From Bacteroidota bacterium (GTDB taxonomy: Bacteria; Bacteroidota; Bacteroidia; Bacteroidales; UBA4417), in contig JBAXBJ010000001.1 in assembly GCA_037142075.1 (NCBI GenBank), positions 93,617 through 157,616 of the forward strand: DNA of 64,000 bases, given 5' to 3'. A program made the position numbers and the translations under genes. The notes beneath the pieces were generated by a model. The model had not been told where the DNA came from. It saw only the letters and a program-made list of their open reading frames with translations, and ran no database searches. This document shows positions 8,322 to 59,130 of the stretch, in pieces. Positions within the stretch are counted from its first letter, which is position 1. Each line of letters begins with the position of its first letter.

Positions 8322-8331
8322 ATCTTGATGT

Positions 8332-9639: not shown

Positions 9640-9642
9640 TTG

Positions 9643-36324: not shown

Positions 36325-36328
36325 ACTG

Positions 36329-36667
36329 AGATATTTTAAAAGTATTCAAAAAGTAACCAGCAAGTATTCCGAAAGTAACCAGAAAACATTCTTTCAATTA
36401 TATGCTAACTAATTAACTAACTGATGTTTGGGCTTTTTACTGATTGGTTGATAGTTTGCTGCTGGTATTAAACAGTAACCAGCAACGTAACCAGCAGCGT
36501 AACCAGCAGCGTAACCAGCAGCGTAACCAGCAGTGTAACCAGCAGTGTAACCAGCAGTGTAACCAGCAGTGTAACCAGCAAAGTAACCAGCAAAGTAACC
36601 AGCAAATTCCTTATTATTCTTCATGCACTTTAAGCCATTCTTTACCAAAAGTTGTAATAATATACTG
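36329..36667. repeat. direct repeat copy A (partner at 45271-45501)
   Basis: TTAAAAGTATTCAAAAAGTAACCAGCAA...TTATTATTCTTCATGCACT..AAGCCATTCTTTACCAAAAGTTGTAA shared. Confidence 0.85.
36475..36606. repeat. 12-bp tandem repeat, 11 units GTAACCAGCA(AC/GC/GT/AA)
   Basis: Counted directly: 1+3+4+3 units. Confidence 0.95.
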
Positions 36668-38059: not shown

Positions 38060-38071
38060 ATCGGTAGTTCA

Positions 38072-39433: not shown

Positions 39434-39438
39434 TATAC

Positions 39439-41271: not shown

Positions 41272-41282
41272 AATGCACCGTT

Positions 41283-43112: not shown

Positions 43113-43459
43113 TCGCCTGATGTTATTTTATTATAAACTATTTGTAAATCATCGAAATTATTGATCCGATAGGTTTTGTTACCAACTTCAATATATCCTT
43201 TCACACTTTTATCTGCATCAAAATTATCGAACAGATCATATACTTCAACACCAAGAGCTTTGGCAATATTTTCTAATGAAGAAAGCGTAGGATTACCATT
43301 TGTAGATATCATTCTGGTAACTACTTCGGGGGATACATCCATTCGAACAGCAAGTTGCTTTAGCGTAATTCCCTGCTGCTTGCAAATATGCTTAACCCGT
43401 AACATTTCGATATCATTTAAAACCTTGACAAACTTATAGAAAACTAATATATAAATCAA
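43109..43459 (-). CDS. XRE-family HTH regulator (true start probably MLRVK)
   Basis: GITLKQLA.RM....GNPTLSSLENIAKALGV; overlaps the hsdM start. Confidence 0.85.
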   Translation of the reverse strand: MIYILVFYKFVKVLNDIEMLRVKHICKQQGITLKQLAVRMDVSPEVVTRMISTNGNPTLSSLENIAKALGVEVYDLFDNFDADKSVKGYIEVGNKTYRINNFDDLQIVYNKITSGE

Positions 43460-43537
43460 TAATTTTTAAATAATTGGTTTAAATATCAATTTTAATTTGG
43501 AAATAATTGATATATGAATTATTTTTGTTTACTATAA

Positions 43538-43882
43538 ATGACACATAAATCAACTATTATGGAAACGGCAAAATATATTTTTTTAATTCTGAGGAGCAAC
43601 CAAATGGTAATGTGGAGTTGGGGATTTTCAAATCCTATACCACTCACGAACAATGAAGGTTTAATCTTTGGTGTGGATGGCTATAAGCATAAAGGATTTG
43701 TAAAAGTAATTTACGATGAAGGAAAAGACTTATTTGTTGTCGTTTTATTAGATATCCAGAACAATGAATTACAACGAATTGACAATGTGTATTTCGATAG
43801 TCTTGTTGATGTAATTGACGAAGCCGTTGAACGTACTTCAGATTATGAAGTACGAGTTATATGTGATTATTGTCCAAATTAA
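43538..43882 (+). CDS. hypothetical protein
   Basis: AKYI..IL...MWSWG...GL.F.VDG.KHKG.VKV.YDEGKDLF. Confidence 0.7.
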   Translation: MTHKSTIMETAKYIFLILRSNQMVMWSWGFSNPIPLTNNEGLIFGVDGYKHKGFVKVIYDEGKDLFVVVLLDIQNNELQRIDNVYFDSLVDVIDEAVERTSDYEVRVICDYCPN

Positions 43883-44050
43883 TATTGAAACGATGAAATT
43901 TGATGTTGTATTATTTTTTAACTTTTGAGTGATCAGATTGGTGACTCTATCCTACATTTGTAACTTCATCCTGCAATCCTGATTTTATGTTCATATCCAA
44001 GTATTAATCACAAAATCGTAAACACCGCCAATCATGTTAGCTAAGAAGAT

Positions 44051-44097
44051 TTGAAGGGGGCAATATAAATCGGTGCAGATTTGTTAATTTAGTCGGC
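44051..44097. repeat. ~48-bp direct repeat (partner 45222-45270)
   Basis: TTGAAGGGGGCAATATAAA.CGGT.CAGATTT.TTAATTTAGTCGGC. Confidence 0.8.
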
Positions 44098-44117
44098 TAC
44101 CAAATGATATATATACC

Positions 44118-44582
44118 ATGAAAATCAAAATTGAGAAAAGCTCCTACTGGTTTCTTATTACTGCCCTGTGCAATTTAATTTATTCACCCATTGTTCATTT
44201 CTTCCTCAAAAACCCCAATATTGGCGAACGATTCAAAAGTATGAGTTTGACCTTCTATGTATCTTACCTATATGTTGCAATAGGACTAATTTGGCTTGTA
44301 TTTGGAGTGTTATACGTAATATCTGATAATGCACAATACTTCAAGTTTACACAAAAATCAAAACAACTACATTTCTTCCTGACAATAACATTTATCTTTT
44401 GCCTGATGCTCGTGCCGATTTTGGATACTTATTATCCAACTTCAGATGCCAACAGGAACAGCTGGTTTTCAGAGGTATTCGGATATATTTTACCTGTCGC
44501 AGTACTGGCATTTTTTGGAGGAATCGGTCTGTACATTACTAATCTATTGAAAGCCTTGTTCAGTTTAATTGCTAAAAAATAA
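44118..44582 (+). CDS. membrane protein (about 4 TM)
   Basis: 154-aa hydrophobic ORF. Confidence 0.65.
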   Translation: MKIKIEKSSYWFLITALCNLIYSPIVHFFLKNPNIGERFKSMSLTFYVSYLYVAIGLIWLVFGVLYVISDNAQYFKFTQKSKQLHFFLTITFIFCLMLVPILDTYYPTSDANRNSWFSEVFGYILPVAVLAFFGGIGLYITNLLKALFSLIAKK

Positions 44583-44660
44583 GTTACAGGTTTTAGAGTA
44601 TCGACCGCCAGTCGCACTTTCAAACAGATATTGCCACCAAACACCTGATAGCCTAAAAAT

Positions 44661-44954
44661 ATGTTCATATCCAACCTCACTCATTTTCTCGATGCTGATG
44701 GTAATATTGCACAAGAAATGTCAAAAATCGGGCGAGAAAGAGCCAGTTTCATAGCTATGATAGTCGATGAAGCCACCAAGCCCCCAACTGAAGAATATAT
44801 CGAGCTTAGGTGTATGAAGAAAAAGTGCGAAGGAACCATTGAAATAATGATTCTGGACGAAACCGAGGAAATAGAATATTGGTGCACCCATTGTGTTAAT
44901 AATAATGGCAGGGTTAGTGGCTGGCAGGGGACGAAATGGGATAATCGGAAGTAA
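44661..44954 (+). CDS. small Cys-containing hypothetical protein
   Basis: C.KKKCEG...WCTHC...G.VSGWQGTKWD. Confidence 0.7.
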   Translation: MFISNLTHFLDADGNIAQEMSKIGRERASFIAMIVDEATKPPTEEYIELRCMKKKCEGTIEIMILDETEEIEYWCTHCVNNNGRVSGWQGTKWDNRK

Positions 44955-45270
44955 CTTATGCTGATTTTTGATACTTGTATTATTGACAGTAATTCGCCAT
45001 TACCCAAATACAATATTTTCCAATTTCATAAAATTGAAATAGTTCAGGTTTGTAAGTTATCGCTCAGGCAACTTGCGTTGCAATTTCAATCGAATTAAGG
45101 ATATTTCTTACCGTCTATCCCCAAATGCTTTATTAAGTTCTTCAATATATAATTTAGGATTCCTCTATTAATTCTCGCTTTCATCTCAAATTTAAATACC
45201 TGATCTATTGGCAAAGAATAATTGAAGGGGGGCAATATAAAAACGGTACAGATTTATTAATTTAGTCGGC

Positions 45271-45501
45271 AGACATCTTAAAAGTATTCAAAAAGTAACC
45301 AGCAAATATTCCGAAAGTAACCAGAATACATTCTTTCAATAATATACCAACTAATTAATTAACTGATGTATGGATGTTTTAATGATTGATTGATGGTTTG
45401 CTGCTGGTTTTAAAAAGTAACCAGTAAAGTAACCAGCAAATTCATTATTATTCTTCATGCACTCTAAGCCATTCTTTACCAAAAGTTGTAAAAACAGACT
45501 G
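45271..45501. repeat. direct repeat copy B (partner 36329-36667), with only 2 units in place of the 11-unit array
   Basis: Includes the last codons of the AlbA_2 gene (FGKEWL.VHEE*). Confidence 0.85.
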
Positions 45502-45641
45502 TGGATTTTGCTGTACATAGATACAGGTTCTTCCCGTTCTTATCTCTAAATTCCCTGAAGAATAAAGTAACGAATTTCATTGCCGACATAGAAATTGTTT
45601 ACACTCTCTAAAAATCAATACTTCTATCTTTTAATAAAAAA

Positions 45642-46061
45642 TTATCGTATAATTTCTTTTTCTGCCCTTGCTTTACTAATGCAATCCAATGCTATTTTAT
45701 CAAAATTTCGATTATTAATAATATCCATAATTTTATCTTTAACCCCATATAATACTATGTCCTGAATGTGTAAAAATATGTTTGATTTATCATATTTATC
45801 ACCATGTACAAATTCATCTAAATCAACATTATCAAGCTCTGAAGTGCCATCTTTAATATCCACGTTTACTACCATAATATGGTTATATTTAAGTTCAACA
45901 TAAACATTTTTGTGATCTGATATATTTACACCATCAGATATTTGACCCGTGTCAGGATCAAGCATAAATAATATAAATTTATCCTCATTCGCTACAATTG
46001 TTCGAGCTACTACACCATAAAAATTGCTTTTTCTAATTTTCTTAGAACATTTGTTCTGCAT
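45642..46061 (-). CDS. hypothetical phage-like protein
   Basis: 139-aa ORF behind two AAACTT-N15/16-TATA(A/T) motifs. Confidence 0.6.
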   Translation of the reverse strand: MQNKCSKKIRKSNFYGVVARTIVANEDKFILFMLDPDTGQISDGVNISDHKNVYVELKYNHIMVVNVDIKDGTSELDNVDLDEFVHGDKYDKSNIFLHIQDIVLYGVKDKIMDIINNRNFDKIALDCISKARAEKEIIR

Positions 46062-46257
46062 AAGTATTAAGTTATTTTTTGAACTTAATATATTCCATAA
46101 ATAAATTTAAGTTTTAATTATTTCAAAAAGACGCTTATTATTAATAGAACTAAAATATTTTTTGCGCACATTATATTCAGAAAAAATAAAAAGTTTAATT
46201 TATTTTCAAATAATTAATATGAATCTAATTTAATACAATCCTTGATATTATTACCCG

Positions 46258-46314
46258 CAAAACCCTTATTAATATTGGGGTTTATGTAGGTTAAGTTATT
46301 TTCAAACAAAGCCA
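46258..46314. repeat. 57-bp direct repeat with internal palindrome (partner 48467-48523)
   Basis: CAAAACCCTTAT.AATATTGGGGTTTA...TTATTTTCAAACAAAGCCA. Confidence 0.85.
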
Positions 46315-46409
46315 TATATAAGTGTAACACAGAATTTTTAAATATTTTCATAAAAATCAGTTTTTGACTTTTTTTTAAATATATATAGATTAAAAATAAA
46401 TAATTTATT

Positions 46410-46610
46410 ATGAACAGCGACTATGAAAGGCAATCAAAGGAAATTAGAACCATTTACATAAACGGTGAACTTTTCCACAACTTTAGAATTGCAGCAGCAA
46501 TTGAAAGCAAAAAAGCATCCGTGAAAATTGAAGAACTGATTCAGTCATACATGAACAGTAGACCATCAATTCAGAAAATATTACTGAATCAGAAAAATAG
46601 TGAAAAATGA
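46410..46610 (+). CDS. small putative RHH-type DNA-binding protein
   Basis: RTIYINGELFHNFRIAAA...KIEELIQSY. Confidence 0.65.
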   Translation: MNSDYERQSKEIRTIYINGELFHNFRIAAAIESKKASVKIEELIQSYMNSRPSIQKILLNQKNSEK

Positions 46611-46659
46611 AGTGAAAGAATCGGGCAACTGATTAAAAAAATAAAAGAATGGAGGAATA

Positions 46660-46863
46660 ATGGCTTGGTTAGAAGATAACTGCGATTGGGATTTGTATGA
46701 GCAAGAAATTGCTGAAGGGATCAGAGAAATTGAAATTGATGACAGGATACCAGAAGACTTACATGATATCCCATATGATAATGGGTTTTCTTCCGAAGAG
46801 GATAAAGATTCGTTTTTAGAAAGCTTAAAATCGAACGATCTGGAAATGCTTGATCTGTTTTAG
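46660..46863 (+). CDS. small very acidic protein
   Basis: GGAGG ribosome-binding site; 23 D/E versus 4 K/R in 67 aa. Confidence 0.6.
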   Translation: MAWLEDNCDWDLYEQEIAEGIREIEIDDRIPEDLHDIPYDNGFSSEEDKDSFLESLKSNDLEMLDLF

Positions 46864-46888
46864 AAAATCAGGATTTGATATAACCTAA

Positions 46889-46916
46889 AAAAACCTCCAA
46901 TTTCTTGGAGGTTTTT
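46889..46916 (+). terminator. intrinsic terminator
   Basis: AAAAACCTCCAA-tttc-TTGGAGGTTTTT. Confidence 0.8.
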
Positions 46917-47314
46917 GCTTTTAGTAGCCATCTTTAGAATATTGTCATTTATAGTCAAATAATATAACAATATCGGTTTTTGCCTTCCACCAGATGCGGA
47001 TTTGGATTAGATACACAATTCACTGTTAGTCTCACCTTTTCATTATTGATTCCATTTGCTACTAAAAAAATGAAAGGGTAGTTATTCAAAGTTAAGATTA
47101 TTTTTTTAGAAAACCAATATTATTCAGAATTAAATATTGGTTTGGGTTTCTAATTATTATAGTTTAGAATAATAATAAAGTTTATTATTTCTTTTAAAAG
47201 ATTTAATATTTTTATGAAACACAGCAATGACAGGCTCTGTAGGCATTAATATTATTAAATTAATTCGGAAATAATAATCAAATATTAAAATCAATTAATT
47301 TATTAATTGTAAAA

Positions 47315-47797
47315 ATGGAAAAACAAGATAAACTTAACCTTAAAGTAGATATCGACTTGTCCGTCTCGAAAAAAATCGTTAACTTTAGTCTAAATAATAC
47401 GATGAATAATAATTATATTCACATTAAGGATGAAATCAATAAAATCCTCACCAGCAATAACTCACTTAAAGTTCGAATTGAAAAGTTAGCGCAAATGGGC
47501 TACGTGATAATAGCCAAGTCTGATGGGTATTGCTGGAACTATTCAACTGGTGATAGAAAATGGACACTTGTCGAAAGTTCCTATGAAGGTGCCGCTTTTT
47601 ACGCAATGTCACCGTATAGACTTTTAGACGATCTGGTGGAAGAGAATATGGAGTATTCATACTATTTTCAAATCAGTTCCACTATGGGTCGATTTCGCCA
47701 TGTAAAGTATACAAATTGCACATATTATGCTGTGGTTTCAGAAAAGGAGTTAAACCAACGACTGCGAAAAATGAAAATCAAGAAGATATTTAAATAA
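47315..47797 (+). CDS. hypothetical phage-like protein
   Basis: Ends RLRKMKIKKIFK. Confidence 0.65.
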   Translation: MEKQDKLNLKVDIDLSVSKKIVNFSLNNTMNNNYIHIKDEINKILTSNNSLKVRIEKLAQMGYVIIAKSDGYCWNYSTGDRKWTLVESSYEGAAFYAMSPYRLLDDLVEENMEYSYYFQISSTMGRFRHVKYTNCTYYAVVSEKELNQRLRKMKIKKIFK

Positions 47798-47853
47798 ATG
47801 TGGACGGCTTAATTCTAACTTTTACCTGTCATATTAATATGATAATTTTAAGT

Positions 47854-48294
47854 CTAAATAGAATTTAACCGCTCCAATTTCTTTCTTCTTTCCAAAGGAA
47901 GAATATAATCTTGATACTTATCATCAATTTCTTTAATATTGATTCGGTTAAAGGGATCGTACTTAACTGGATAGCCTATCCATTCAAATTGTTTTTCGTT
48001 TTCTTGAAAATAAAGAATATTATAATGTCGATCATCTTTTCTCTTACATTGAAATTCTTCAAACCTATAACCCTCTTTCACTCTCTGTATTATTTTTATA
48101 CCATCAATGTACTCATTCGTAGGGATATAATATCCATAAGAAGCATCACCAATAATAAACTCTGCGTCTAACTTTTGCATATAGAATTGAGCTTTAGACT
48201 TTTGCCCAACAATTTTATAAAATTCTATTCTCGACCATATATTTGATCCCCAAGTCCTTACAATAATTTCATCTTCATTAGCTTGCTTTTTCAT
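47854..48294 (-). CDS. hypothetical phage-like protein
   Basis: Ends LERRKKLERLNSI; AAACTT-N16-TATAA motif upstream. Confidence 0.7.
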   Translation of the reverse strand: MKKQANEDEIIVRTWGSNIWSRIEFYKIVGQKSKAQFYMQKLDAEFIIGDASYGYYIPTNEYIDGIKIIQRVKEGYRFEEFQCKRKDDRHYNILYFQENEKQFEWIGYPVKYDPFNRINIKEIDDKYQDYILPLERRKKLERLNSI

Positions 48295-48668
48295 GATTTG
48301 TGTTTTTAATAATTATAGAATGATAAATTATAAAAGTTTATTATTCGTATGAAATAAATCATGATGCCCGATAATAACTGGAATAGTACTCATTTATTAA
48401 ATTAAATCAGAAAGAATAAATAATAAATATTCCCATTTTTCATTTTTTTAATAATATTATTCCCATCAAAACCCTTATCAATATTGGGGTTTAGAAAGTT
48501 TAAATTATTTTCAAACAAAGCCACTATTTTTTTAATATATAGTTTGTAAGGATTTGTTTTTGGAGTTGGTGAAGTTGGTATGAGGGGATGGGTAAAAAGG
48601 GGTACTATTTTAAGAAATGGTGCCCCTTACTCTGGGCAAATACTTCTATAAAAAATCATCCAATATGT

Positions 48669-49808
48669 ATGCACGTTATCCTCCCCATCGAATTCTCATT
48701 CTTAACCAAGAACCCCAAAATCGTTTTCAAAAAGAAAACTTTGAAATCTGATTACATCATCCACCTGATAAATTACTGTCTTAATTATAAGGATGATGAT
48801 GAATTTTCCCTCAATTCTACGATGATGAGACATCTATATTCTAAAGATTATCCATTATTAGTCAAATACTTAGTTTTTAAAAATTTCATTCGTAAAATTA
48901 GAAATCATAAAGCTGGTGCAAATTCAAGAATCTATACCGTTTGTTTTCCATTTACTAATTTCACTGATGCATTTCAACTCTGTAACCACTTCCTTCAAGA
49001 TAAATGGAAGAAGCATCAAGAAAAATTAATCCTATCCCTTCCTGAGCTCAAAACATCAATTCTGCCTGAGTTAAGGAAGCCTTTGATAGATAACCTTTAT
49101 AAAGTTGATATTGATGATGTGAAAGCAACTAAATGGATTAAATCAGGGATAACACAATCTCAAACCCGAGAATTTCATTTCCTTAAAATTGAAGCTATTA
49201 ATTCGAAAGAAATACATTATTGTTTTGATGATTATGGTCGATTTCATACTTCATTTACAAATTTGAAGAAACAGCTAAGACAATTTCTTCAAGTAGATGG
49301 AAAGAGATTATTGGATTTAGATATTAAAACCAGTCAACCCTTATTTCTGGCTCAAATCTTGAAAAATTATAATGGTTTAGGTACTTATGATAGATTTATT
49401 GACATAACAGAAAACCAAGATATCTATCTCTTTTTATTAAACAAGAATCCTCAATATTTAAAATCCACTATAGAAGAATCAAGAAAAGCTATAAAGAAAG
49501 AAATATTAACTTCTTTGTTTGACCCCCAAAAGACTACAGCAATTCCCTATAACAAATTACTTAATGATGAATTCCCTGAAGTTTATACTTTCATTAAACA
49601 CTATAAAAAGTATGAAGGTGAATTCCTTTGGAAGATTCTTCAACGCCTTGAAAGTAATTTCCTTTATAATAATATCTTTAAGAAAATTAATGATTTGAAT
49701 CTTTTCTGTATCACCATTCATGATTCAATATTATTCCAAGAAAAGGATAAAAAAGTAATAGAAGAAATATGGTATCAAGAATTAGAAAAATTAAAAAATT
49801 CGCTTTAA
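48669..49808 (+). CDS. family A polymerase-like (TV-Pol/T7-RNAP-related palm) replication protein with N-terminal wHTH-like region
   Basis: GRFHT, DLDIKTSQP (motif A), DIY, RKAIK (motif B), LQRLES, TIHDSIL (motif C); the track start 48588 would translate an upstream hairpin. Confidence 0.7.
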   Translation: MHVILPIEFSFLTKNPKIVFKKKTLKSDYIIHLINYCLNYKDDDEFSLNSTMMRHLYSKDYPLLVKYLVFKNFIRKIRNHKAGANSRIYTVCFPFTNFTDAFQLCNHFLQDKWKKHQEKLILSLPELKTSILPELRKPLIDNLYKVDIDDVKATKWIKSGITQSQTREFHFLKIEAINSKEIHYCFDDYGRFHTSFTNLKKQLRQFLQVDGKRLLDLDIKTSQPLFLAQILKNYNGLGTYDRFIDITENQDIYLFLLNKNPQYLKSTIEESRKAIKKEILTSLFDPQKTTAIPYNKLLNDEFPEVYTFIKHYKKYEGEFLWKILQRLESNFLYNNIFKKINDLNLFCITIHDSILFQEKDKKVIEEIWYQELEKLKNSL

Positions 49809-49890
49809 AACCATTAAATTCTTTAAATAAATGAAATAATTAAAAAAAATGAAAATTTCCTCCTTCTTTCCCCCAATCCTGTTCTCATTA

Positions 49891-49933
49891 ATGTTGTCAC
49901 TTTTAGTCACTCTTTATATATGTTGTCACTTTT
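49891..49933. repeat. 14-bp direct repeats, possible origin iterons
   Basis: ATGTTGTCACTTTT at 49891 and 49920 with a partial GTCACT between, just after the polymerase-like gene. Confidence 0.5.
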
Positions 49934-50155
49934 TGGATTTGGATGGAAAAAGGATTTGGAAGATACGGTTTTTGCAATATTCAGAAAGTCATTTAAGGAC
50001 ATCGGGTACAATATTATATTTAGACAGCTTTTGCTAACCATGAAGAATCGCAAATGGATTATCAGCAAATGGGCACTCACGAATTATAACCAATGATTAT
50101 TGATGTGAGAATTAATTATTGGAAATAATTATTAATTTAGTGCCTAATAAATTGT

Positions 50156-50527
50156 GTGATTATGCCTTTTTGCAGAACAAAGGATACTGGAAAGAACTAC
50201 TATTATGTAGAAATCATTTACAGAGATGTTAAAAAATTTGCTGTATTTGAATTAGATGAAATTTTTTCACAAGATCACTTTCAGGCTGAATTCTATGATC
50301 TTGGAGAAAAAAATCGATTTCAATCAACATATTATGTTACGGATGGGAAAGACTATTTTAAGTTAAAATTAAACAACAATGAGCAATATATCATTATTGA
50401 TGGAAGCGATGCAGCTTCTATTAATAATGAATATTTTGACGAATTGGATGGTCTGGAAATTATTAACAGAAAGGATTATCTTAAAGGGATGAAACAAAAA
50501 ATGCGGGAACAAAGATTTGACCTTTAG
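50156..50527 (+). CDS. hypothetical phage-like protein
   Basis: Ends KQKMREQRFDL. Confidence 0.65.
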   Translation: MIMPFCRTKDTGKNYYYVEIIYRDVKKFAVFELDEIFSQDHFQAEFYDLGEKNRFQSTYYVTDGKDYFKLKLNNNEQYIIIDGSDAASINNEYFDELDGLEIINRKDYLKGMKQKMREQRFDL

Positions 50528-50767
50528 TATTCACCATTTATCTAACAGGAGCTGAGCTATTTCAATTGTCAGAATAAAAATGACTTCGTTTGCGAAACAT
50601 TCTAAGCGTCTACAAAAGAAGATGTTCAATAAATAAGCCGTTTCCCTACCGAGTTTGAGAACTGTTGGCTCCGATGAGATATATTCATTTTGTGGCATAT
50701 ATTCCGTATTGGTGAATATGTGAATTTTCAGATAGTTTTCTCATCACATATCAATAGTCTTTTTATT

Positions 50768-51277
50768 TCACCCGCCCAATTTCTTCACATATAATTTTAA
50801 TGTTGCCGCATCAGTATTTTTAAGGAGCTTTACATGATCTACCTTGAATCCATCAGCTTTCATTTCTTTCTCACATTTCTTCAAGATTTGTCGTTTTGCC
50901 CGTTCATTTATTTTTCTTTTTAGGTCATCATAGTCACCATTGTACCAACCACTTGTATAGTATTGACCATGATAGCCCCACATTTTATTCCAAGAAGTAA
51001 TATGCGCATGTCGATAATGAGTCACCATATTTGCCAACCATCGAGCATGCTCATCAGTAAACAATTTGTTTAGGTATGGTCTGGTTTCAAAGTATTCATT
51101 ACAAATAGGACATAATTGTTCTATGATTTCAATAGTACCTTTTTTGAAATCGAAGGTTTTTTGACCATGGCAATTCGAACATTTATTTGGTATATAATTA
51201 TCCTCCTTCTCGAATTTATTGCCACATTTGCGACAAGTGAACGTATATCCTTTTTTTAAAAATTTATTGTATTTCAT
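50768..51277 (-). CDS. zinc-finger hypothetical protein
   Basis: CRKC..CSNC, CPIC...HYRHAH. Confidence 0.7.
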   Translation of the reverse strand: MKYNKFLKKGYTFTCRKCGNKFEKEDNYIPNKCSNCHGQKTFDFKKGTIEIIEQLCPICNEYFETRPYLNKLFTDEHARWLANMVTHYRHAHITSWNKMWGYHGQYYTSGWYNGDYDDLKRKINERAKRQILKKCEKEMKADGFKVDHVKLLKNTDAATLKLYVKKLGG

Positions 51278-51452
51278 ATTGATCTTTTTTTAGTTATAGG
51301 GTCTTTACGTGTGTGAGCAAGTAGAAAAAATAATATTAAATGAGACACTTAGTAAATCTTCAAAAACAACTTCCACAAAAAGAAATTGAATTTCTGCATT
51401 AAAAATCACTAACAATTATAAAAAACTCAACTCATAAATGATCCTTTTATCA

Positions 51453-51600
51453 AATATATCGTCCCTACGGGACTCTATTCTGACACGTAATTTGCCCTTA
51501 CTACCAATATTTTGTCCCTACGGGACAGTCCCAGCGGAACTGTATATTGGTAGAATTGTAAATTAGCCCTATTGGCCAAAGTCCCGTAGGGACGATATTG
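51453..51600. repeat. REP/BIME-like cluster of GTCCCTACGGGAC palindromes
   Basis: Units at 51461, 51514, 51528 (degenerate) and 51581 (inverted); whole cluster is an imperfect inverted repeat. Confidence 0.8.
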
Positions 51601-51781
51601 TAATTAGTCTGACATAAGGCAAATAGATTCCTATGTGTTATTTGTATTGGGGAAGTTATTTCGAAAGTTTCACTTAAGCAAAAACTAAATAAAATATATA
51701 AAAAAATTAAAGTTTTTTTAGCCTATTTACTAAATGATAATAGCTGTTTTATAAATTTTTTCATGATGTTAGAAAGCCCCT

Positions 51782-52357
51782 TTATTGGTGCTTTTCAATT
51801 TTTTTTATTTTTAATTGTCTGATTATTTTAGTCCATTTTCCACCTAATGGATTTCTTGGTTTAATTATATCAAAAAACTGACGAACTGGTAGGATATATT
51901 CTTTATCTCTATGAATAATTAAAACACTTGGTATATCTGCATGAGCACTGAACTCAATATATGTATTTTTTCTCAGTTTAATATTTTCTGATTTTATAGA
52001 TTGTGTTACATACCCACTATCCATAGTCAGAAACTCTTCAAGCGTATCTGGTTCCATAATTCGCCAAAATAGTTTTATAGGTATTTTCACACAATAATAC
52101 TTGGTGGTCATAGAAATCGGAGTTCTTATATCATCTATGATATAGAAACTATTTTTGTCATTACTGATGAACACAAACACTAATGATCTTTTCCTAATAA
52201 TAACTTTTTCTTCAGGGTCAAATATAACCTCAGTAAAAGTGCTGGGTAATTCATGGTGAGTATCCCTTTTGTAATTATCAACTTCCTCTATTGTAATAGT
52301 AGATGTGGTTTCAATTCCCCGTACACCTTGTTTGCAATGCAATATCATTTTTTCCAT
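51782..52357 (-). CDS. hypothetical phage-like protein
   Basis: Ends IIRQLKIKKIEKHQ. Confidence 0.7.
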   Translation of the reverse strand: MEKMILHCKQGVRGIETTSTITIEEVDNYKRDTHHELPSTFTEVIFDPEEKVIIRKRSLVFVFISNDKNSFYIIDDIRTPISMTTKYYCVKIPIKLFWRIMEPDTLEEFLTMDSGYVTQSIKSENIKLRKNTYIEFSAHADIPSVLIIHRDKEYILPVRQFFDIIKPRNPLGGKWTKIIRQLKIKKIEKHQ

Positions 52358-52506
52358 CTTTCTATCTTATTTATTTTTAAAAAATGCTCTAAAACTGGCA
52401 AGTGCCATACCGTTAAATGTCTCAATGTTTGCTTTACGCTTTTTGCTGGAGTGCCGTACTCCATTATTATCTTTAAACATAGATGTGACATTGCCACAAA
52501 AAGAGC

Positions 52507-54234
52507 CTATTTTTGCTCCATCAGCATCATTTTCTTCGCTTTAGGATCAAGGTTATAGCAATCCCAACCATTACGTTGCTCGGTAAAGATGCCGACCCGT
52601 GAAAGCCTGATATCAAATATCTCATCAATTGCATTAACAACTTGATCATCCTCCATTACATTTGTTCTTTTTGTAGTCGCTGCTCCTACAGGGATACCTT
52701 TATTTCTGTTGCAAACAAGAACCATATCATCAACCTGCTCAAAATATTTAGATGTATATAAGGATTGTTTACGGACTGCGGTAATGTGCTCCACGTATTT
52801 GAAACCCCATTCCGTGACCAATTTCTCTGCTTGTTGCTCATATTCATGTGGTATGTGCAAAAACAGTACAGCATCGTCTTCAGCAAATTCAATAACATTA
52901 AGACTGCGTAAGTCCCTGATGGTTTTCATATTCTCATCACTTGTGATAGATGATGGGGTTAAGTTGGGGTGGATGTACAGAAGCTGATATTTTTTAGTTG
53001 CATCAATATGGTACGGTGGCTGAGACTTATTTTTGGATGGAGTTCCTGTTTTGGCTGTTGTTAGTTTTCTAAGTTTCTCTTCCTGCTTTATGACAGTATA
53101 GACCTCATTGATTGATTTCTGCCCTTTGTATATTAATTCCCGATCTTCAACCGAGCCGCATTTAAGAATCTTTTTAACTCTTGAAGCTGTATCATTAGAA
53201 ACATCAGCTAATTCGGCTGCAATTTTTGTGAGGTTTATAGGCTCGATACGTTTTTCAGAATTCTGAAAAGCGGTGGAATTTTGTTTCAGTCCAGCTAACT
53301 GATTTGCTTTCGCTGTCGGTTCAAGGATTTTAGCCCTCATAATGCTCAATACAATGGTTTGGAACGGGCTAAGTTGCCTTTGCTCTTTCTGGTTGTCTAT
53401 CATCCAAACCTTGACAGCATCAATGTTAGGGAATTCTTTCTCAATGATATTGAATTCAATGTTCCGTGCCTTACATATCTTATAGCGATTGTGACCATCT
53501 ATAATAATATGGTTCCAAACCACTATGGCATTCCGACAACCTTCGTCTCGAAGCCTCTTCTCAAGAGCTGAAAATTGTTTTGGTGAAAGTGGCGGGAGAA
53601 AATTTTCAAGTTCTGGCAGGATAGTCAGAACACCATCATCCATAATATTCTTCTCTGGGGCACTATTTTCATCCGATAATGAAACTTCACTATTCACAGC
53701 AGGTGTAATAGGAGCTGTTGGCGGGGAGATCACATCAGCATCTTCAGTGGTTTCTTCGTCTGGTTCATTATACATTGTCAGAGCAGGTGCTACTATCAAT
53801 TCATCAGGGACGGCTATCACTCCACCAAGAGCGGTTGTTACTTTATCAGGAGTCGGTGACTTCGTTGTCCTATCACATTCTGATAATTCATCTTCAGGAT
53901 TTAATCGGGAGTTTTCAATTATATCCAATGTACGATCCTGCTTGGGAGCCACCACTTTTACTGCATCCACCACTACTTTCAATTCTTTGCCCGTTAACCA
54001 ATTTGGGTCGAGTTCAGTTAGTTCTCTCTCAATTTCTGTTCGTTTCGCAATTAATGCTGTAACACCAAAATTATTCTTTCTTTGTATCTCCTTTGCAGTA
54101 AGAAACCGTTCATGCTTCAATTTTTTGATTCTCTCGCTAATACGGTTTTCATCTGTAAGATGTTTTGTGTTAACCACGGGATTATTGGCGGCTTGACCAC
54201 TTGTCGGATTTGCCATAATTTGAATTCTGTTCAT
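52507..54234 (-). CDS. ParB-like N domain + HTH + degenerate MT-A70-like domain
   Basis: LPPLS..QF..LE..LRDEGCR.AIVVW..IIDGHNRY.IC; KKYQLLY, DDAVLFLH, EWGFKY. Confidence 0.8.
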   Translation of the reverse strand: MNRIQIMANPTSGQAANNPVVNTKHLTDENRISERIKKLKHERFLTAKEIQRKNNFGVTALIAKRTEIERELTELDPNWLTGKELKVVVDAVKVVAPKQDRTLDIIENSRLNPEDELSECDRTTKSPTPDKVTTALGGVIAVPDELIVAPALTMYNEPDEETTEDADVISPPTAPITPAVNSEVSLSDENSAPEKNIMDDGVLTILPELENFLPPLSPKQFSALEKRLRDEGCRNAIVVWNHIIIDGHNRYKICKARNIEFNIIEKEFPNIDAVKVWMIDNQKEQRQLSPFQTIVLSIMRAKILEPTAKANQLAGLKQNSTAFQNSEKRIEPINLTKIAAELADVSNDTASRVKKILKCGSVEDRELIYKGQKSINEVYTVIKQEEKLRKLTTAKTGTPSKNKSQPPYHIDATKKYQLLYIHPNLTPSSITSDENMKTIRDLRSLNVIEFAEDDAVLFLHIPHEYEQQAEKLVTEWGFKYVEHITAVRKQSLYTSKYFEQVDDMVLVCNRNKGIPVGAATTKRTNVMEDDQVVNAIDEIFDIRLSRVGIFTEQRNGWDCYNLDPKAKKMMLMEQK

Positions 54235-55006
54235 ACTTAATATTTTTTTTGGTTTTTTAAAAATTGTTGATACACTTCAAAGTTACAATTTATTTTTGAA
54301 TAAAACAAGTTCAATATATTGATATACAATATTATACGAGATAAAAAAATTTGAACGAAAATATTCAATATTATATTTTTATAGTCTTTACCCAAAATGC
54401 TCATTGCAACACCGTCTTATAACGGGATATATTTACATCCCTTTAATTTGTGATCTCCCTCTATTAGACACACAGTCCACCGAGGTGAAGAGCTATTGCT
54501 ACTGACGAGTTGTGGCTTTTTTATGGAATGATGTTCATATTGTCGAATATGGGTCAGGGGACATATCCCGATATATGACCATACCTGATTGAAGGCATAC
54601 CCCCCTTACCCCTAATAGGGCATGCATTATGAAAGATGAGAAAGCCTTCACGAATAGTATAGGTTTGCAGCTCTGAATCCAAATTTTTAAATTAATCTCA
54701 TTCTAACAATATGAAATTTTTTTTATAAATTTTTTTTTGATTTTTTCCAAATGCGATTATCATTATTAATGCACATGGTCGAAAATGGCAGTTTTTGCTT
54801 TTTTGAGGTTTTACAGAGACATCCTGTTTTTAGAGTGTCTGAAAGCAAAAACAACCAATTTGAGCCAATTTAGTATAAGTTAATAATAGCCTTCCAAGTT
54901 GTTGGAGCTATTTGCAACCTTAGTGGTGATCAGTGCTGTTTTTTTTTAATAATTAAGACATATAAAAATCTCTTTTGGGAGTATCTGTTTGCATGCGGAT
55001 TTCAGT

Positions 55007-55288
55007 TTAAATAACAAATCTCTCCAAGATTTTGTTTTTTTCGTATTCTTTTTTAGAAATCGGAATAAATAATTTTATAAAATTTCTCATACTTTCTGAT
55101 TCAGAATTTGCATAGAATGAAAAGCTATAGCCATTATCATCAAAAATCACATAGATAAAATTTGATGTCTCATTACCAAGTTTGATTAAAGCTCCTTTAT
55201 AACTGAATCCCTCCTTAAAACTCGGAGTGAAAACACCTTCAACATCCTTTTTACAGACGGCATATATTTCCTGATTGTGCTTTTCCAT
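55007..55288 (-). CDS. hypothetical phage-like protein
   Basis: 93 aa, ends KKEYEKNKILERFVI. Confidence 0.6.
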   Translation of the reverse strand: MEKHNQEIYAVCKKDVEGVFTPSFKEGFSYKGALIKLGNETSNFIYVIFDDNGYSFSFYANSESESMRNFIKLFIPISKKEYEKNKILERFVI

Positions 55289-55351
55289 TAGTTGTTTCGA
55301 TAAAGTAATATTGTGTCTGCAAAAATATTTTTATTCAGTATTATGATTTTT

Positions 55352-56710
55352 TTAAGAGTGCTGCTCTCTTTTGTTCCATTCCTCTACCTCGTTAATTCCC
55401 TTTTCAAGATATCTGCTAAAGGATTGCATAGAGGTATGTGACGACCATTTCATGACATTTTTAAAAAGATGACCTTCTGCTAATTTTGAGGTGCAGAAGT
55501 ATTTGCGTGAACTGTGAAAATTTAACAGTTCATATTTCTTATAGGGTTGCCCCTTTTCTAATCCTCTATGTTTAAGTTTAATTTCATTAGAACCTTTGTG
55601 TCTGACGAATTCGGTTGGCTCCCAATAACTCTGAATATTTAATTTTTCCATTTCTGGAAGCACTAATTCAAATAACAATTTTAAGTTGTCTCTTATTTTC
55701 TGTTCTGACAACTTAAATCCTGATCTTTCCGTCATTTTGTTTTGCTCCATCCAAAGTATAATATTCTTTGCAGAATCAGATACTGGCACACATGAAATTA
55801 CTCTGGTCTTGATTTGCTTGATCATAACTCTGTCAATGTTATCGACAAATTTTATGTGAGATGAGTCGATCCGTTTAACATCCGAAAATCTCAAAGCTGT
55901 CTCACATGACAGGACATACAAGTTGCGCACATATTCGATATTTGGATGTTTTTTGAGAAATGGATTTAAATCAAAAGTATTAATTACATTATATTCCTCT
56001 TTTTTAAGTAGAACAATATTTTCATCTTCTTTGGGTCGCTTTAGGTTAAGTTTATAGGATTTGTATGCTTGGTTAACAGCTATTTTAGAATCAATATATT
56101 CCAGAAATCTTTTTAGGCATTGCCACCTTTTAACAATTGTAGTATTATTCAATTTCACCCCTTTTTCAGGTTTCTTTGAACGCCCACCAACTTTTCTCTC
56201 CATCTGTATCCAATTGTTTTTTATCTCATCCAAAATATGGTCATCTAATTCTGATAATCTGAGACCTTTAGGATACATTGTCTCAATATCATTTATAATA
56301 GTATAGAAAATTTTAGTATAAGTAAGATGAGTAAGCGTTTTAACAAAGTCTTTAAATAAAGGAATCAGTTGATCCTTATCTTCTTGTTCTACATCTTTTT
56401 TAATGTACAATTCTTTTAAGCCTTTACCAGATGGATATTGATCATCTAATGGAAGTGTTCGCCTTGGGTGTTGATAATCTTCTATAATATTTTCAATTGC
56501 GATCCACATGATTTTAAGCCTCTTATTCGATTCAGAATCTCCTTTGACGTATTCAAATGTTTTAGAATTTCCGTCAAAACTGTCTATGTCAGCTTCAACA
56601 CCTGTTCCAAGTCTGATATATGGTGAGTTATGAGTATAAAAGAATAGAACTGGAGAAAGCCCCGATGATTTGTTCACAGTGCCAGTTCTCAACTTAAAGT
56701 ACATTTTCAT
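55352..56710 (-). CDS. tyrosine integrase (Bacteroidota type with arm-binding N-terminus)
   Basis: TALRFSD (R), QIKT (K), FHSSRKYF (HxxR), SSHT (H), SRYL (Y); a TATCTTTG box at 56726-56733 favours ATG 56710 as start. Confidence 0.9.
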   Translation of the reverse strand: MKMYFKLRTGTVNKSSGLSPVLFFYTHNSPYIRLGTGVEADIDSFDGNSKTFEYVKGDSESNKRLKIMWIAIENIIEDYQHPRRTLPLDDQYPSGKGLKELYIKKDVEQEDKDQLIPLFKDFVKTLTHLTYTKIFYTIINDIETMYPKGLRLSELDDHILDEIKNNWIQMERKVGGRSKKPEKGVKLNNTTIVKRWQCLKRFLEYIDSKIAVNQAYKSYKLNLKRPKEDENIVLLKKEEYNVINTFDLNPFLKKHPNIEYVRNLYVLSCETALRFSDVKRIDSSHIKFVDNIDRVMIKQIKTRVISCVPVSDSAKNIILWMEQNKMTERSGFKLSEQKIRDNLKLLFELVLPEMEKLNIQSYWEPTEFVRHKGSNEIKLKHRGLEKGQPYKKYELLNFHSSRKYFCTSKLAEGHLFKNVMKWSSHTSMQSFSRYLEKGINEVEEWNKREQHS

Positions 56711-56741
56711 ATTTCGAAATTTCACCAAAGATAGCAATTTA

Positions 56742-56960
56742 TTGAGTAGCTTTTGAGTAGGTTAATATCGAGAAGATGACAGAAGTGAATTTTAGTATAT
56801 AAACAAATACCATTATATAATATTAATAATCAATCATATAAATAATATTTAATTTTGTGGTCAGGAAGATGAAAGAATATGAAAGAACTATTGGTAGTTC
56901 TGTTGAGGCTACCAAACCCCTGGTAATACAGGGGTTCATGATTAACAGTGTCCCTTTCAG
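56742..56960. mobile_element. att site region: core inverted repeat with arm-type direct repeats
   Basis: TTGAGTAG x2 (56742-56760); core TTGGTAGTT-CTGTTGA-GGCTACCAA (56891-56915); hairpin AACCCCTG/CAGGGGTT; CAGTGTCC x2 just beyond. Confidence 0.65.
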
Positions 56961-57195
56961 TGTCCTGAAGGGCGAAAACACATCTTTTTTTAATTAAAAT
57001 CTTTTTTAGAGCATAGTTTAGTCGTGAAGAAACAATATTTTAAGAGAGATTTTTGTGTATTCTATTTATAAAAGTGGTGCAAAAAAATGGAATCTAGAAT
57101 AGAAATTCATTTATAATATTACCATACTGCTGATAATTAACGCATTACTGTTTATAGTTTCTATTGTTTTTGTGGTTAATTTGAAAAGGAATAAT

Positions 57196-57222
57196 AGAAT
57201 AGGCCGCTCCGCGGCCTATTCT
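57196..57222. terminator. intrinsic terminator-like hairpin
   Basis: AGAATAGGCCGC-tcc-GCGGCCTATTCT. Confidence 0.7.
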
Positions 57223-57496
57223 GTTTAAGAAAGTATTACCGTATTCTTGTGTCATACTTGGATAACCCTTGTTATCATATGTATAGAATGATAACGACAG
57301 TGTGAAAATCAAATTATTAAGGTTTTAATTTTGATAATTTTAAACCAGTCTTTCTTCCAAAATATCCTTCCATTTTATAAAACCTTTCTTTTCGTCCGTA
57401 TAATCGTGTAAAATCCGGCTGAAATATGTGGGTGCTGAATCCAGAAAAGCTTGTCTGCCGCCGTTTTTACAAATGACACTTAAATTGAATCAGTTT

Positions 57497-58786
57497 TCAG
57501 ATCGATACCTGATGTGTTGCGCCAATAGCTTTGATCTGAGATCCGGCAATTCCTGAATCGGATGCATATTCTTTCCATTTGCTAATTACATCCCTGGCAT
57601 TTTCGATGATCTCTTTTGCTTTTTTTACATTCATTCGGGTAGCAAGTGACAATAAATCATTTCGGGTAATATCGCGGCGTTTGTTGTTGATGGAAAGCTG
57701 ATGCTGTGAAAGCCACAGATTTGAAGGGTTATAGGCAAATGTAACATCATATGCAGGTGACAGGCTCCATTGACCAGTTTCATCCATTAGGAAAGAAATA
57801 TTCTTAGTGTGATCATCATTGTTGGAACCAATTACATTAAATACCATACGGCGGAATAGTTGGTCGGCAGCTGAATAGGGCAAACGAAGGCTTCTCATTG
57901 CCTGGAAGGCTTGTTCGTATGAATATGCATTGGGATTGTTATAGTCGAAATGGCAAAGGCCACACAATGTCTGTATGTGAAGCTTTTTATTGTGCTCAAG
58001 CCTGTCGAAGCGTCGGATCATGAAGTGAGCCCTTCCATTTTCTTCAAGCAGACGACTTTCACTCATTATTATTCCACAATCCAATGCCATTTTGTAATAG
58101 GCAAATTCAATCCGCCCGTATCCTTTAGGTTCACCAAGTTGTTCGTCGGAAACTCCATCCAATTTAATGAGCCAATGTGAATATCCTTCAGGAACATCCA
58201 TCTGACCGGACCTGATAGTGTTGTGCTTATTGATAGCGATAACTGCTTTTGCCCTGGCACCGCCGGCCGAAGTGCCTACACGGATAATATCAAGTAAAGC
58301 ATGTGCTTCATCATTGGATAGATTTGTTGTTAAGTCTGATTTCCGATTGACTGCTGACTGAGCCAGATTAACAAGTTCTGAAACTTCGAGAATATTAGAA
58401 TCTCCTTTTTCAATCCGGGTTGCAGGGCGAAATTCGAGTGCTCCCATACCGCGTTTACCCATATAACACAAGCGTTCAACCGGATTCATACTTCCTGGCT
58501 CACGACCTTGAGTTGCCAGCCACAAGTCGATCAATTGATTACCGAATCTATCAGGCAACGAGTCAGCCAATAATCCGGGAAGGCCATAATAGGTTTTTGC
58601 CGGCAAATCAGAGAAACGAAATATTTTTCCATTACTTGCTTCGGATAAAGGCATTGAAAGCGGTGCAATATCCCATTTGTTGCGAAGGAAAGCCGGATTG
58701 TATTCGAAGCTGGCAATTCCGGATTGTTGGTCCCATAAAACTGCGCCTACAAATTTGCCCCAAATATCTACATTAGCAACTACCAT
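57497..58786 (-). CDS. hipA: HipA-family serine/threonine kinase toxin
   Basis: LADSLPDRFG, GTSAGGARAKA, WLIKLDG, RRFDR, NNDDHTKN, LSPAYD. Confidence 0.93.
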   Translation of the reverse strand: MVVANVDIWGKFVGAVLWDQQSGIASFEYNPAFLRNKWDIAPLSMPLSEASNGKIFRFSDLPAKTYYGLPGLLADSLPDRFGNQLIDLWLATQGREPGSMNPVERLCYMGKRGMGALEFRPATRIEKGDSNILEVSELVNLAQSAVNRKSDLTTNLSNDEAHALLDIIRVGTSAGGARAKAVIAINKHNTIRSGQMDVPEGYSHWLIKLDGVSDEQLGEPKGYGRIEFAYYKMALDCGIIMSESRLLEENGRAHFMIRRFDRLEHNKKLHIQTLCGLCHFDYNNPNAYSYEQAFQAMRSLRLPYSAADQLFRRMVFNVIGSNNDDHTKNISFLMDETGQWSLSPAYDVTFAYNPSNLWLSQHQLSINNKRRDITRNDLLSLATRMNVKKAKEIIENARDVISKWKEYASDSGIAGSQIKAIGATHQVSI

Positions 58787-59130
58787 TCGCTATCCTCCTT
58801 CTTTGTTGTTGTTCCTGATGCACGCAAACGCTCCTTACCGCTTAGTTTGGCCATCTGTAAAGGGCTTACCTGGCTGGTCACCTGCCAATTGTCGAGTAGT
58901 TGCAATTGCTGTAAAGCTCTTAAAACCTGCACAGTTGTAAGCAGTGAAGCTACTGTCTTTCCGTTTTCAATGTCGCTGATTGCAGAGCGGGAAAGACCGG
59001 CGTTTTCAGCGACCTGTTCCTGGGTAAGGTTTTGCTGTAACCGTATCTGCCTTAGAAAAATCCCGAGTTGGCTTACAATGGCAGGATCGCTCATGCTGTA
59101 CCAATTTGTTGTATTACCTGGAGTTGTCAT
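58780..59130 (-). CDS. XRE HTH antitoxin (HipB-like)
   Basis: RLQQNLTQEQVAENAGLSRSAISDIENG; overlaps the hipA start. Confidence 0.85.
   Translation of the reverse strand: MTTPGNTTNWYSMSDPAIVSQLGIFLRQIRLQQNLTQEQVAENAGLSRSAISDIENGKTVASLLTTVQVLRALQQLQLLDNWQVTSQVSPLQMAKLSGKERLRASGTTTKKEDSEW

Follow-up and report, generated by a model that had tools for sequence, protein, structure and literature searches.

The question raised by an AT-rich tract near the right end of the window is what kind of mobile element it belongs to and where that element ends. The window is the whole 64,000-nucleotide stretch analyzed here, positions 93617-157616 of contig C1 in the 5.39-Mb, 272-contig assembly of a freshwater Bacteroidota bacterium (G000); positions are those of the window unless prefixed with a contig name. 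An earlier note on this DNA had picked out 45600-56915, which carries genes for a tyrosine integrase and for a small family-A-type polymerase, as a candidate satellite of a large phage, ~ 11 kb in length. The present analysis leads to a different answer. The flagged 11 kb is probably the integrase-proximal arm of a genomic island of ~ 65.3 kb, inserted at the 3' end of a tRNA-Arg(CCT) gene. The island is a tRNA-integrated defense island carrying an enzyme that resembles the 'TV-Pol' polymerases, of a kind already known and otherwise ordinary.

The right end of the island is marked by an attachment-site core, attR, at 56900-56912 on the plus strand, confirming the core that had been placed at ~ 56915. 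Its sequence, CTGTTGAGGCTAC, is identical at 13/13 nucleotides to the end of a tRNA-Arg(CCT) gene (last 13 nt, C1:85262-85274). The tRNA gene itself (C1:85202-85274) lies 8.3 kb to the left of the window, exactly at the left edge of a block of low guanine-plus-cytosine (GC) content that extends along the contig from C1 ~ 85 kb to ~ 151 kb. Because the partner of the core is this tRNA end, outside the window, the integrase-bounded unit measures ~ 65.3 kb and not 11 kb. It extends from C1:85275 (window -8341) to C1:150528 (window 56912), a length of 65,254 bp, and window positions 1-56912 lie inside it. The left attachment site for which the earlier note had proposed a search was therefore found, but 65.3 kb away from the right one, and the discrete ~ 11-kb extent is not upheld. 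A 13-nt match to the tRNA end was reached by 2/2000 shuffles of 56738-57340, the CTGTTGAGGCTAC core has a single match in the window even when up to two mismatches are allowed, and a hairpin follows the attR core as it does the tRNA gene. Only chance-level matches were obtained when exact repeats of at least 12 nt were sought between 56700-57520 and window 1-48000, and the window contains no tRNA and no Rfam family at gathering score. The AT-richness reported earlier was borne out, the flagged interval having 31.2% GC against 41.4% for the genome, a value as low as in only 0.36% of 1678 genome-wide segments of 11.3 kb.

An empty site was recovered by a genus-wide search with the tRNA flank. 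In the near-relative G454 (5.6-kb contig C224), the tRNA gene stands 145 nt from the homolog of window 57291-57476, which is followed by hipA, and these flanks are 92.5-94.6% identical to the window genome. Window 37400-57300 has no match in G454, but the absence of the island from this relative is unproven because its assembly is only 93% complete. Synteny with 40 relatives showed no empty site. A distal repeat of the tRNA 3' end with an integrase beside it, and a close relative with an unoccupied site, are what would be expected of a tRNA-integrated island. The right junction is not an assembly artifact, since it is crossed both by a 4302-nt contig of run X1 (spanning 53126-57427) and by a contig from another study that covers 56746-56956 with zero differences. 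Beyond the junction, the chromosomal flank at which homology with G454 resumes (57291-57476, minus strand) is a 3' remnant, ~ 45 codons long, of a 993-aa gene. This gene is intact directly after hipA in G014 (L072, G014:C10, 10022-13003), where its product has an N-terminal primase-like region and a helicase-like region; ~ 2.9 kb of it is deleted in the window genome.

The genes and sites for integration are distributed over both ends of the island. The integrase (55352-56737, minus strand; 461 aa) matches PF00589 with an E-value of 3.5e-8 and 33.8 bits against a cut-off of 27.1, and its catalytic R, HxxR, H and Y residues are kept within the motifs ALRFSD, HSSRK, SSHTS and FSRY, in agreement with the earlier note. 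Its gene starts 163 nt from the att core. Two TTGAGTAG 8-mers, 11 nt apart at 56742-56762 on the plus strand, are candidate arm-type integrase sites, and a similar pair with equal spacing lies 54-72 nt inside attL (C1:85328-85346); when both strands are counted, the 65,254-bp island contains the 8-mer 17 times, and four of these occurrences belong to the two end pairs. The first gene of the island, 150 nt from attL, encodes a 131-aa HTH_17 protein that matches phrog_66 (excisionase and regulator), and it is the only HTH_17 gene of the island.

The polymerase-like gene (48669-49808, plus strand) encodes 379 aa, predicted to form a probable winged helix followed by a minimal family-A core. The open reading frame (ORF) is open from 48588 (406 aa), from which residues are numbered here; because close homologs start at M28, and residues 1-23 of the structural model have a predicted local distance difference test (pLDDT) score below 50, the true start is probably 48669. 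The sequence contains a GRxHT hairpin followed by a second arginine (R218, R231), a motif A of D245-x3-SQP, a motif B of R299-x3-K303-x3-F-x2-LF, a Q-x2-E pair (Q352/E355) and a motif C of H378-D379-S380. Residues R218, R231, D245, Q250, K303, H378, D379 and S380 are invariant in the family; in alignments of 42 and 26 sequences, D245, R299/K303 and H378-D379 vary little or not at all, and RxxxK is kept in the wider family. The enzyme thus has the catalytic aspartates of motifs A and C and the motif B RxxxK that define family A.

An AlphaFold2 model of the enzyme (pLDDT 87.0, predicted template modeling score 0.84) was compared with 48,161 solved chains using VIA-align. All 12 chains with Z >= 8 (Z 8.3-11.8) proved to be family-A DNA polymerases (DNAPs) or T7-like RNA polymerases (RNAPs), and the next unrelated rows had Z <= 6.9. 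The best match was the Klenow fragment (Z 11.8; 240 residues aligned, root-mean-square deviation 4.0), and the matches included Pol theta (Z 11.1), T7 DNAP (Z 10.3), Yeast mitochondrial RNAP (Z 9.9), T7 RNAP (Z 9.6) and N4 RNAP II (Z 8.6). Since the model matches nothing but family-A DNA and RNA polymerases at this level, the family-A fold can be taken as settled, with a modeled right-hand arrangement of palm, fingers and thumb of the Pol I type. Residues ~ 30-130 resemble many winged-helix domains at Z 6-7, a level that is common in the fold search, and this domain is therefore only probable. In hhalign comparisons with Pol I, T7 DNAP and T7 RNAP, the best local hits coincided with the GRxHT hairpin and with motifs B and C, with probabilities of 0.6-2.3% and with real scores that were reached by 0/25 column shuffles. 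PDB sequence-profile searches were empty, the ESM Atlas returned unnamed clusters only, and the sole PHROGs match of the 406-aa ORF was phrog_4756, a family of unknown function. Longer fused forms were not found in the search, which is itself weak evidence. On the modeled fold and the motifs together, the 379-aa enzyme is a family-A polymerase core with its catalytic motifs intact, as the earlier note had suggested.

The relatives of this enzyme were then considered. A word-indexed search gave 96 matches, a full scan gave 9,290 cluster representatives (50% identity) at E <= 1e-3, and 30 of the 401 class genomes that were sampled contain the family, frequently more than once. Nineteen cellular loci were fetched and 17 annotated, two being omitted for size. 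A recombinase, either tyrosine or serine, lies within 4.5 kb of the polymerase in 14/17 of these loci, and in four of them the compact order integrase, ~ 300-aa gene, HTH_17, polymerase is seen. In the window, the integrase is 5.5 kb from the polymerase and a type I restriction-modification (R-M) system adjoins. In locus L015, the polymerase is 90% identical and a tRNA-Pro gene stands directly beside an HTH_17 gene, the same arrangement as at the tRNA end of the island.

For the polymerase gene, a link to large phages is real at the sequence level. The tblastn search found matches in 7/50,697 phage records, six of which are uncultured phages of 595-735 kb with 26-31% identity, and among metagenomic sequences relatives were seen on contigs of 177-346 kb bearing either gp32 or a T4-type portal gene, gp32 being nearby in two. 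A recombinase was found near the polymerase in 0/10 of the metagenomic phage-like loci and 0/3 of the huge-phage loci, as against 14/17 cellular loci; a neighboring recombinase is thus far more typical of the family in cells, and a phage-specific origin of the gene is not supported. Viral-contig searches with the polymerase alignment and with the integrase, using very specific patterns, gave no match. The polymerase family is common to recombinase-bearing elements and to huge phages of the Bacteroidota type. In a subset of the large-phage contigs (L147:5341-8793; L023, L033, L037, L042), the polymerase-like gene is part of a conserved trio. The gene before it, of ~ 440 aa, is very conserved (phmmer E ~ 1e-185 between contigs), the one after it encodes ~ 180 aa, and the island has neither of these partners, for which no Pfam family was found. 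In addition, a 'Pinkberry virus' record of 19.6 kb (OP947160.1) matches the C-terminal half of the polymerase at 2175-2717 (E 1e-5), in a feature annotated there as a DNA methyltransferase.

Twelve plausible genes were recognized between 45.6 and 56.9 kb, three of which are named by family searches. The remaining nine ORFs gave nothing above threshold in Pfam, PHROGs, NCBIfam or PADLOC and have no paralog in the genome, so that the 'orphan' genes of the earlier note stand, as does its ParB fusion. The latter (52507-54234, minus strand; 575 aa) joins a ParB-N-like domain to an MT-A70-like methyltransferase behind a low-complexity N terminus of ~ 200 aa. Its PHROGs matches are phrog_12047 (ParB-like nuclease) and phrog_359 (DNA methyltransferase), the Pfam MT-A70 match is sub-threshold, and tblastn similarity to phage ParB-like genes spans fusion residues 202-419 (E 7e-33). 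In L015 (E 4.8e-26) and L016, homologs of the fusion are encoded close to the polymerase-like gene. The RHH-like (ribbon-helix-helix) regulator named previously exists as an ORF (46410-46610, plus strand; 66 aa), but its family assignment is weak, being a sub-threshold NCBIfam match. Beside it is a very acidic, Asp/Glu-rich ORF of 67 aa without a family match (46660-46863, plus strand), whose composition would suit a DNA mimic or a protein that counters restriction. An ORFan of 146 aa (47854-48294, minus strand), divergent from the polymerase gene, found only itself in a search of 5.8 billion proteins and has no phage match; a counterpart is present next to the polymerase gene in L015 (L015:1556-2035, phmmer E 3.1e-44).

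The other ORFans are a 139-aa ORF at 45642-46061 (minus strand), a 160-aa ORF at 47315-47797 (plus strand) and a 123-aa ORF downstream of the polymerase at 50156-50527 (plus strand), all three without matches, together with a 169-aa ORF with CxxC zinc-ribbon-like motifs at 50768-51277 (minus strand; zinc-ribbon matches sub-threshold, no phage match), a 191-aa ORF at 51782-52357 (minus strand; no family or phage match, best ESM Atlas value 0.82 and non-significant) and a 93-aa ORF at 55007-55288 (minus strand; no family match and no phage tblastn match). Searches with blastp among the ORFans detected no paralogy, and the 'shared basic tails' described previously are therefore not shown to reflect homology.

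Two copies of a 70-nt repeat, the only ones in the genome, lie on the plus strand upstream of the polymerase gene (48454-48523, with the palindrome AAACCC-N11-GGGTTT) and upstream of the 46410/46660 gene pair (46245-46314; 87% identical to the first). The repeat is kept upstream of the L015 polymerase gene and is a candidate operator, origin or promoter element. The iteron-like repeats of the earlier note did not hold up. Those directly after the polymerase stop codon have Tandem Repeats Finder scores of only 31-39, and the strong repeats belong to a dispersed sequence at 51346-51736 with 27-nt terminal inverted repeats and three GTCCCTACGGGAC palindromes. The latter gave 19 high-scoring segment pairs on 11 contigs of the same genome, shows raised contig depth in its bin and has copies genus-wide; it is a MITE-like repeat (miniature inverted-repeat transposable element). 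Two fragments at 44997-45162 share 94-96% identity with the region of the DUF6577 gene beside the L015 polymerase module, and the shared module therefore extends to the left of the start chosen in the earlier note. A 12-nt tandem repeat, GTAACCAGCAxx, forms the core of a small minus-strand ORF of which there are two copies (36329-36671 and 45272-45518) with flanks 89-92% identical and a difference of ~ 9 units; a further copy occurs in G008.

Outside the flagged interval, the middle of the island is taken up by defense cargo. It includes a type I R-M operon (hsdR, hsdS, hsdM; 33370-43112) with two extra genes between the subunit genes, encoding an AlbA_2/Schlafen-like protein (36614-38059) and a GHKL-type HATPase (39439-41271). 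A cluster resembling defense-associated reverse transcriptase (DRT) systems at 7275-10671 encodes a DUF1848 protein that matches PADLOC RTasDUF1848 (E 1.4e-46) together with a UvrD-like helicase and a protein of 435 aa whose match to RT_UG35 is weak. The island scans also found two HipBA-type toxin-antitoxin pairs and one of the Gp49/HTH type. Of two HipB/HipA-type modules near the ends of the island, one, in which HipA is split, lies just inside the left end (C1:86202-87704, L125:10203-11705), and the other, at 57497-59130, lies just outside the right end. Further cargo includes NERD, HNH and IetA-like AAA proteins, a BrxL-C-like protein, a resolvase and a truncated or split DnaE-like ORF (3283-4560, 425 aa) with the NTPase and finger domains only (phrog_405, E 1.3e-97). 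Among the island ORFs, Pfam and PHROGs showed no capsid, portal, terminase, tail, relaxase or type IV secretion system (T4SS) family, so that the lack of recognizable capsid, terminase, relaxase and T4SS genes described for the 11 kb extends to the whole island. No relaxase, coupling protein or T4SS of the kind carried by integrative conjugative or mobilizable elements was found among the island ORFs scanned, although an oriT could be present. What does stand from the earlier proposal is an integrative element with its own family-A-type polymerase and with defense cargo travelling along.

Several observations weigh against the reading of a single tRNA-integrated island with a family-A polymerase of its own. 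Between the att core and the conserved flank, 379 nt have no counterpart in G454. The island is a mosaic in composition, at 29-38% GC, and holds the MITE-like repeat, gene remnants and a second recombinase (the resolvase, 16106-16723), because of which it may have accreted from several elements, the outermost att sites alone having survived. As for the enzyme, Pfam DNA_pol_A (PF00476) does not match the protein, and none of 42 family members is matched at E <= 1, PF00940 included. The fold search is blind to DNA versus RNA synthesis, with yeast mitochondrial and T7 RNAPs among the matches at Z 9.6-9.9 and a motif C, HDS, that is the same as in T7 RNAP. No helicase or SSB partner of the polymerase (SSB, a protein that binds single-stranded DNA) was recognized in the module, and Pfam, PHROGs and PADLOC scans showed no helicase family in 45-57 kb. 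Finally, Iyer et al. (2008; PMC2579912) reported a TV-Pol from Microcystis phage LMM01, and the family profile found no match there, although the empty answer of this search shows nothing.

The alternatives differ mainly in the unit that they regard as mobile and in the activity that they give to the enzyme. That an ~ 11-kb satellite of a large phage is present here, with its own polymerase, switched on by helper transcription and packaged in helper capsids, is very improbable. It would account for the relatives of the polymerase in the six huge-phage records and on the contigs with gp32 or a T4-type portal, for the phage polymerase loci being as GC-poor as the module (27-31%), for tetranucleotide correlations with phage loci of r 0.54-0.61 for the module against 0.15-0.32 for the host, and for the lack of transfer machinery in the island. 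Yet there is no left att near 45.6 kb and no discrete 7-20-kb unit with its own att sites, only the 65.3-kb unit bounded by repeats, and Pfam and PHROGs scans of the island revealed no family of terminase, capsid, portal, scaffold-redirecting or head-tail proteins, although the ORFans could hide a packaging or capsid-hijack gene. When the orphans were searched against phage sequences, as the earlier note had advised, 7/7 tested ORFans had no tblastn match in the 50,697 records, and besides the polymerase no module protein matches 45 kb from three huge phages. In its tetranucleotide signature the module is closer to L015 (r 0.84) and to the remainder of the island (r 0.71-0.77) than to phage loci (r 0.41-0.61), and the host-type promoter motif TAnnTTTG stands upstream of 2/12 module genes versus 9/31 other genes, no clear difference. 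The earlier note had itself named two kinds of finding that would count against a satellite; the lack of phage homologs was found for the seven ORFans tested, and structural or conjugation genes elsewhere in the island were not. A larger version of the idea, in which all 65 kb of the island form a 'mega-satellite' that depends on huge Mahaphage-type phages of Bacteroidota as helpers, is likewise a very long shot. If it were true, the polymerase, which shares about 30% identity with a gene of the four largest curated phage genomes, would read the 70-nt repeats as promoters or origins, the ORFan genes and replication would fire together with the helper, and a helper capsid of the 600-kb class would easily hold 65 kb.

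It is also unlikely, though it deserves more weight than a satellite, that the 11-12-kb module is a separate small integrase/HTH_17/polymerase element that inserted beside an older island at the same tRNA site and whose internal att site has been eroded or deleted. Small units of an integrase, a ~ 300-aa gene, HTH_17 and the polymerase do exist in relatives (L106, L107, L111, L118), no part of the island is poorer in GC than the module (29-31%), the nucleotide-level match to L015 covers only 44997-50734, in pieces, and sequence up to 43850, beginning in hsdM, is common to G008 at 87% identity while the module is not shared. Set against this are the lack of even a degenerate att core anywhere in the window, the position of the sole HTH_17 gene and of the pair matching the arm sites by int, which are at the far, tRNA end and not near 45 kb, and the similar tetranucleotide signatures of the module and the rest of the island. 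A slightly better case, still a minority one, can be made for the enzyme being a minimal promoter-specific single-subunit RNA polymerase, comparable to N4 RNAP II, that transcribes the ORFans from the 70-nt element and has the same role in huge phages. The H-D-S of motif C, which hhalign places on T7 RNAP 803-834, is consistent with this, as are the three RNA polymerases among the fold matches (Z 9.9, 9.6 and 8.6), a UniRef entry that calls one family member 'DNA-directed RNA polymerase', a probable winged-helix domain that could read a promoter, and the presence of the 70-nt repeat before two transcription units, including that of the enzyme itself. DNA polymerases, however, make up the six best structural matches (Z 10.3-11.8), and motif B is spaced as in Pol I (RxxxKxxxFxxLF), an F taking the place of Y639 of T7 RNAP, the residue that selects ribonucleotides; in addition, the cellular context is one of integration and replication modules, and gp32 is near the gene in two phage contigs. 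Finally, it is improbable that the island is a decaying, immobile remnant whose ORFans and polymerase gene are relics without present function. Signs of decay are the MITE insertion, the DUF6577 fragments, the truncated DnaE-like ORF and the neighboring 993-aa gene reduced to ~ 45 codons, but the ORFs of both integrase and polymerase are complete and retain every catalytic residue, the direct repeats are 13/13 identical, ORFs of 139-191 codons are very unlikely by chance at 29% GC (a base-composition estimate), and identical pieces of the island occur in contigs of a second study.

For the preferred reading, a tRNA-integrated island of ~ 65.3 kb, the following sequence of events can be envisaged. 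The integrase and the Xis-like HTH_17 protein would excise the island as a circle, in which the int and HTH_17 genes would meet around attP. The 379-aa enzyme might then prime and/or copy the excised circle, with the 70-nt palindromic repeats as candidate recognition sites, and the ParB-methyltransferase fusion may modify the DNA of the element. The cargo, including the type I R-M system, DRT-like genes and toxin-antitoxin pairs, would benefit the host. Since no transfer machinery is encoded, outside help would be needed for spread, which could come from a conjugative element, transformation or a phage.

With the mobile unit corrected from 11 kb to a tRNA-Arg island of 65 kb whose ends are defined, excision becomes directly testable. 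The structural prediction places a very large family that lacks a Pfam or NCBIfam model as a family-A core with a probable DNA-binding domain, and because the family is found in Bacteroidota islands and in the largest known phage genomes alike, it is a cheap target for biochemistry on how DNA or RNA synthesis starts without a classical primase in small elements and huge phages. Excision of the island and the biochemistry of the polymerase family are thus the parts worth following, the finding being real but more ordinary than that first proposed.

Phage satellites such as P4, PICI and PLE are roughly 7-20 kb in length. The module resembles them in its integrase, small regulator, own replication enzyme, ORFans and lack of virion genes, but differs in belonging to a 65-kb unit with no recognized packaging or capsid-remodeling gene, no phage homologs of the ORFans and no known helper. 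The 'Mahaphages' share a polymerase homolog, 26-31% identical, and a similar GC content, the phage records being equated with the genomes of PMC7162821 by matching lengths alone; they have no recombinase near the gene, and in a subset it belongs to the trio whose other members, of ~ 440 aa and ~ 180 aa, the island lacks. Al-Shayeb et al. (2020) predicted Bacteroidetes hosts for the 634-, 636-, 642- and 735-kb genomes. A further parallel is provided by CcPol-MP and PolA-SSB of SCCmec and other Bacillota elements, described by Rice (2023; PMC10061031) as truncated family-A enzymes proposed (for CcPol, shown) to be primases. As here, a truncated family-A polymerase of a mobile element lies beside site-specific recombinases, but the operons of CcPol-MP are described there as always having an OB-fold partner and a helicase, together with large serine recombinases, whereas here the polymerase has no recognized helicase or SSB partner, the recombinase is a tyrosine integrase and the host is of another phylum.

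Like tRNA-integrated genomic (defense) islands, the island is inserted at a tRNA 3' end and bordered by a short direct repeat, has its integrase next to one att site and a deviant GC content, is present in a strain-specific manner and carries R-M, toxin-antitoxin and other defense genes. It differs from them in having its own family-A-type polymerase and ParB-methyltransferase, and in the placing of the integrase distal to the tRNA with the Xis-like gene at the tRNA end. The claim that it matches no described family is not sustained, since elements with a TV-Pol and a lambda-type integrase were described in 2008 in Bacteroidetes, in R-M-rich hot spots, as set out in PMC2579912, where TV-Pols are reported from Bacteroidetes and Planctomycetes; of the systems described so far, these come closest. 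Compared with that description, the island enzyme, at 379 aa, is just under the 400-600 residues given, its N-terminal domain is modeled as a winged helix where that of TV-Pol is all-helical, and it is part of a 65-kb island with the polymerase 5.5 kb from the integrase. The label 'TV-Pol-like' is used because no sequence tie to a published TV-Pol member was obtained. The likeness to the enzymes of PMC2579912 is nevertheless extensive: a standalone minimal family-A domain with the signature residues (the hairpin arginine, the two aspartates and the RxxxK of the fingers) and no exonuclease, an extra N-terminal domain, and a link with lambda-type integrases or resolvases in R-M-rich hot spots of mobile elements, here represented by the recombinase neighbors of most of the cellular loci.

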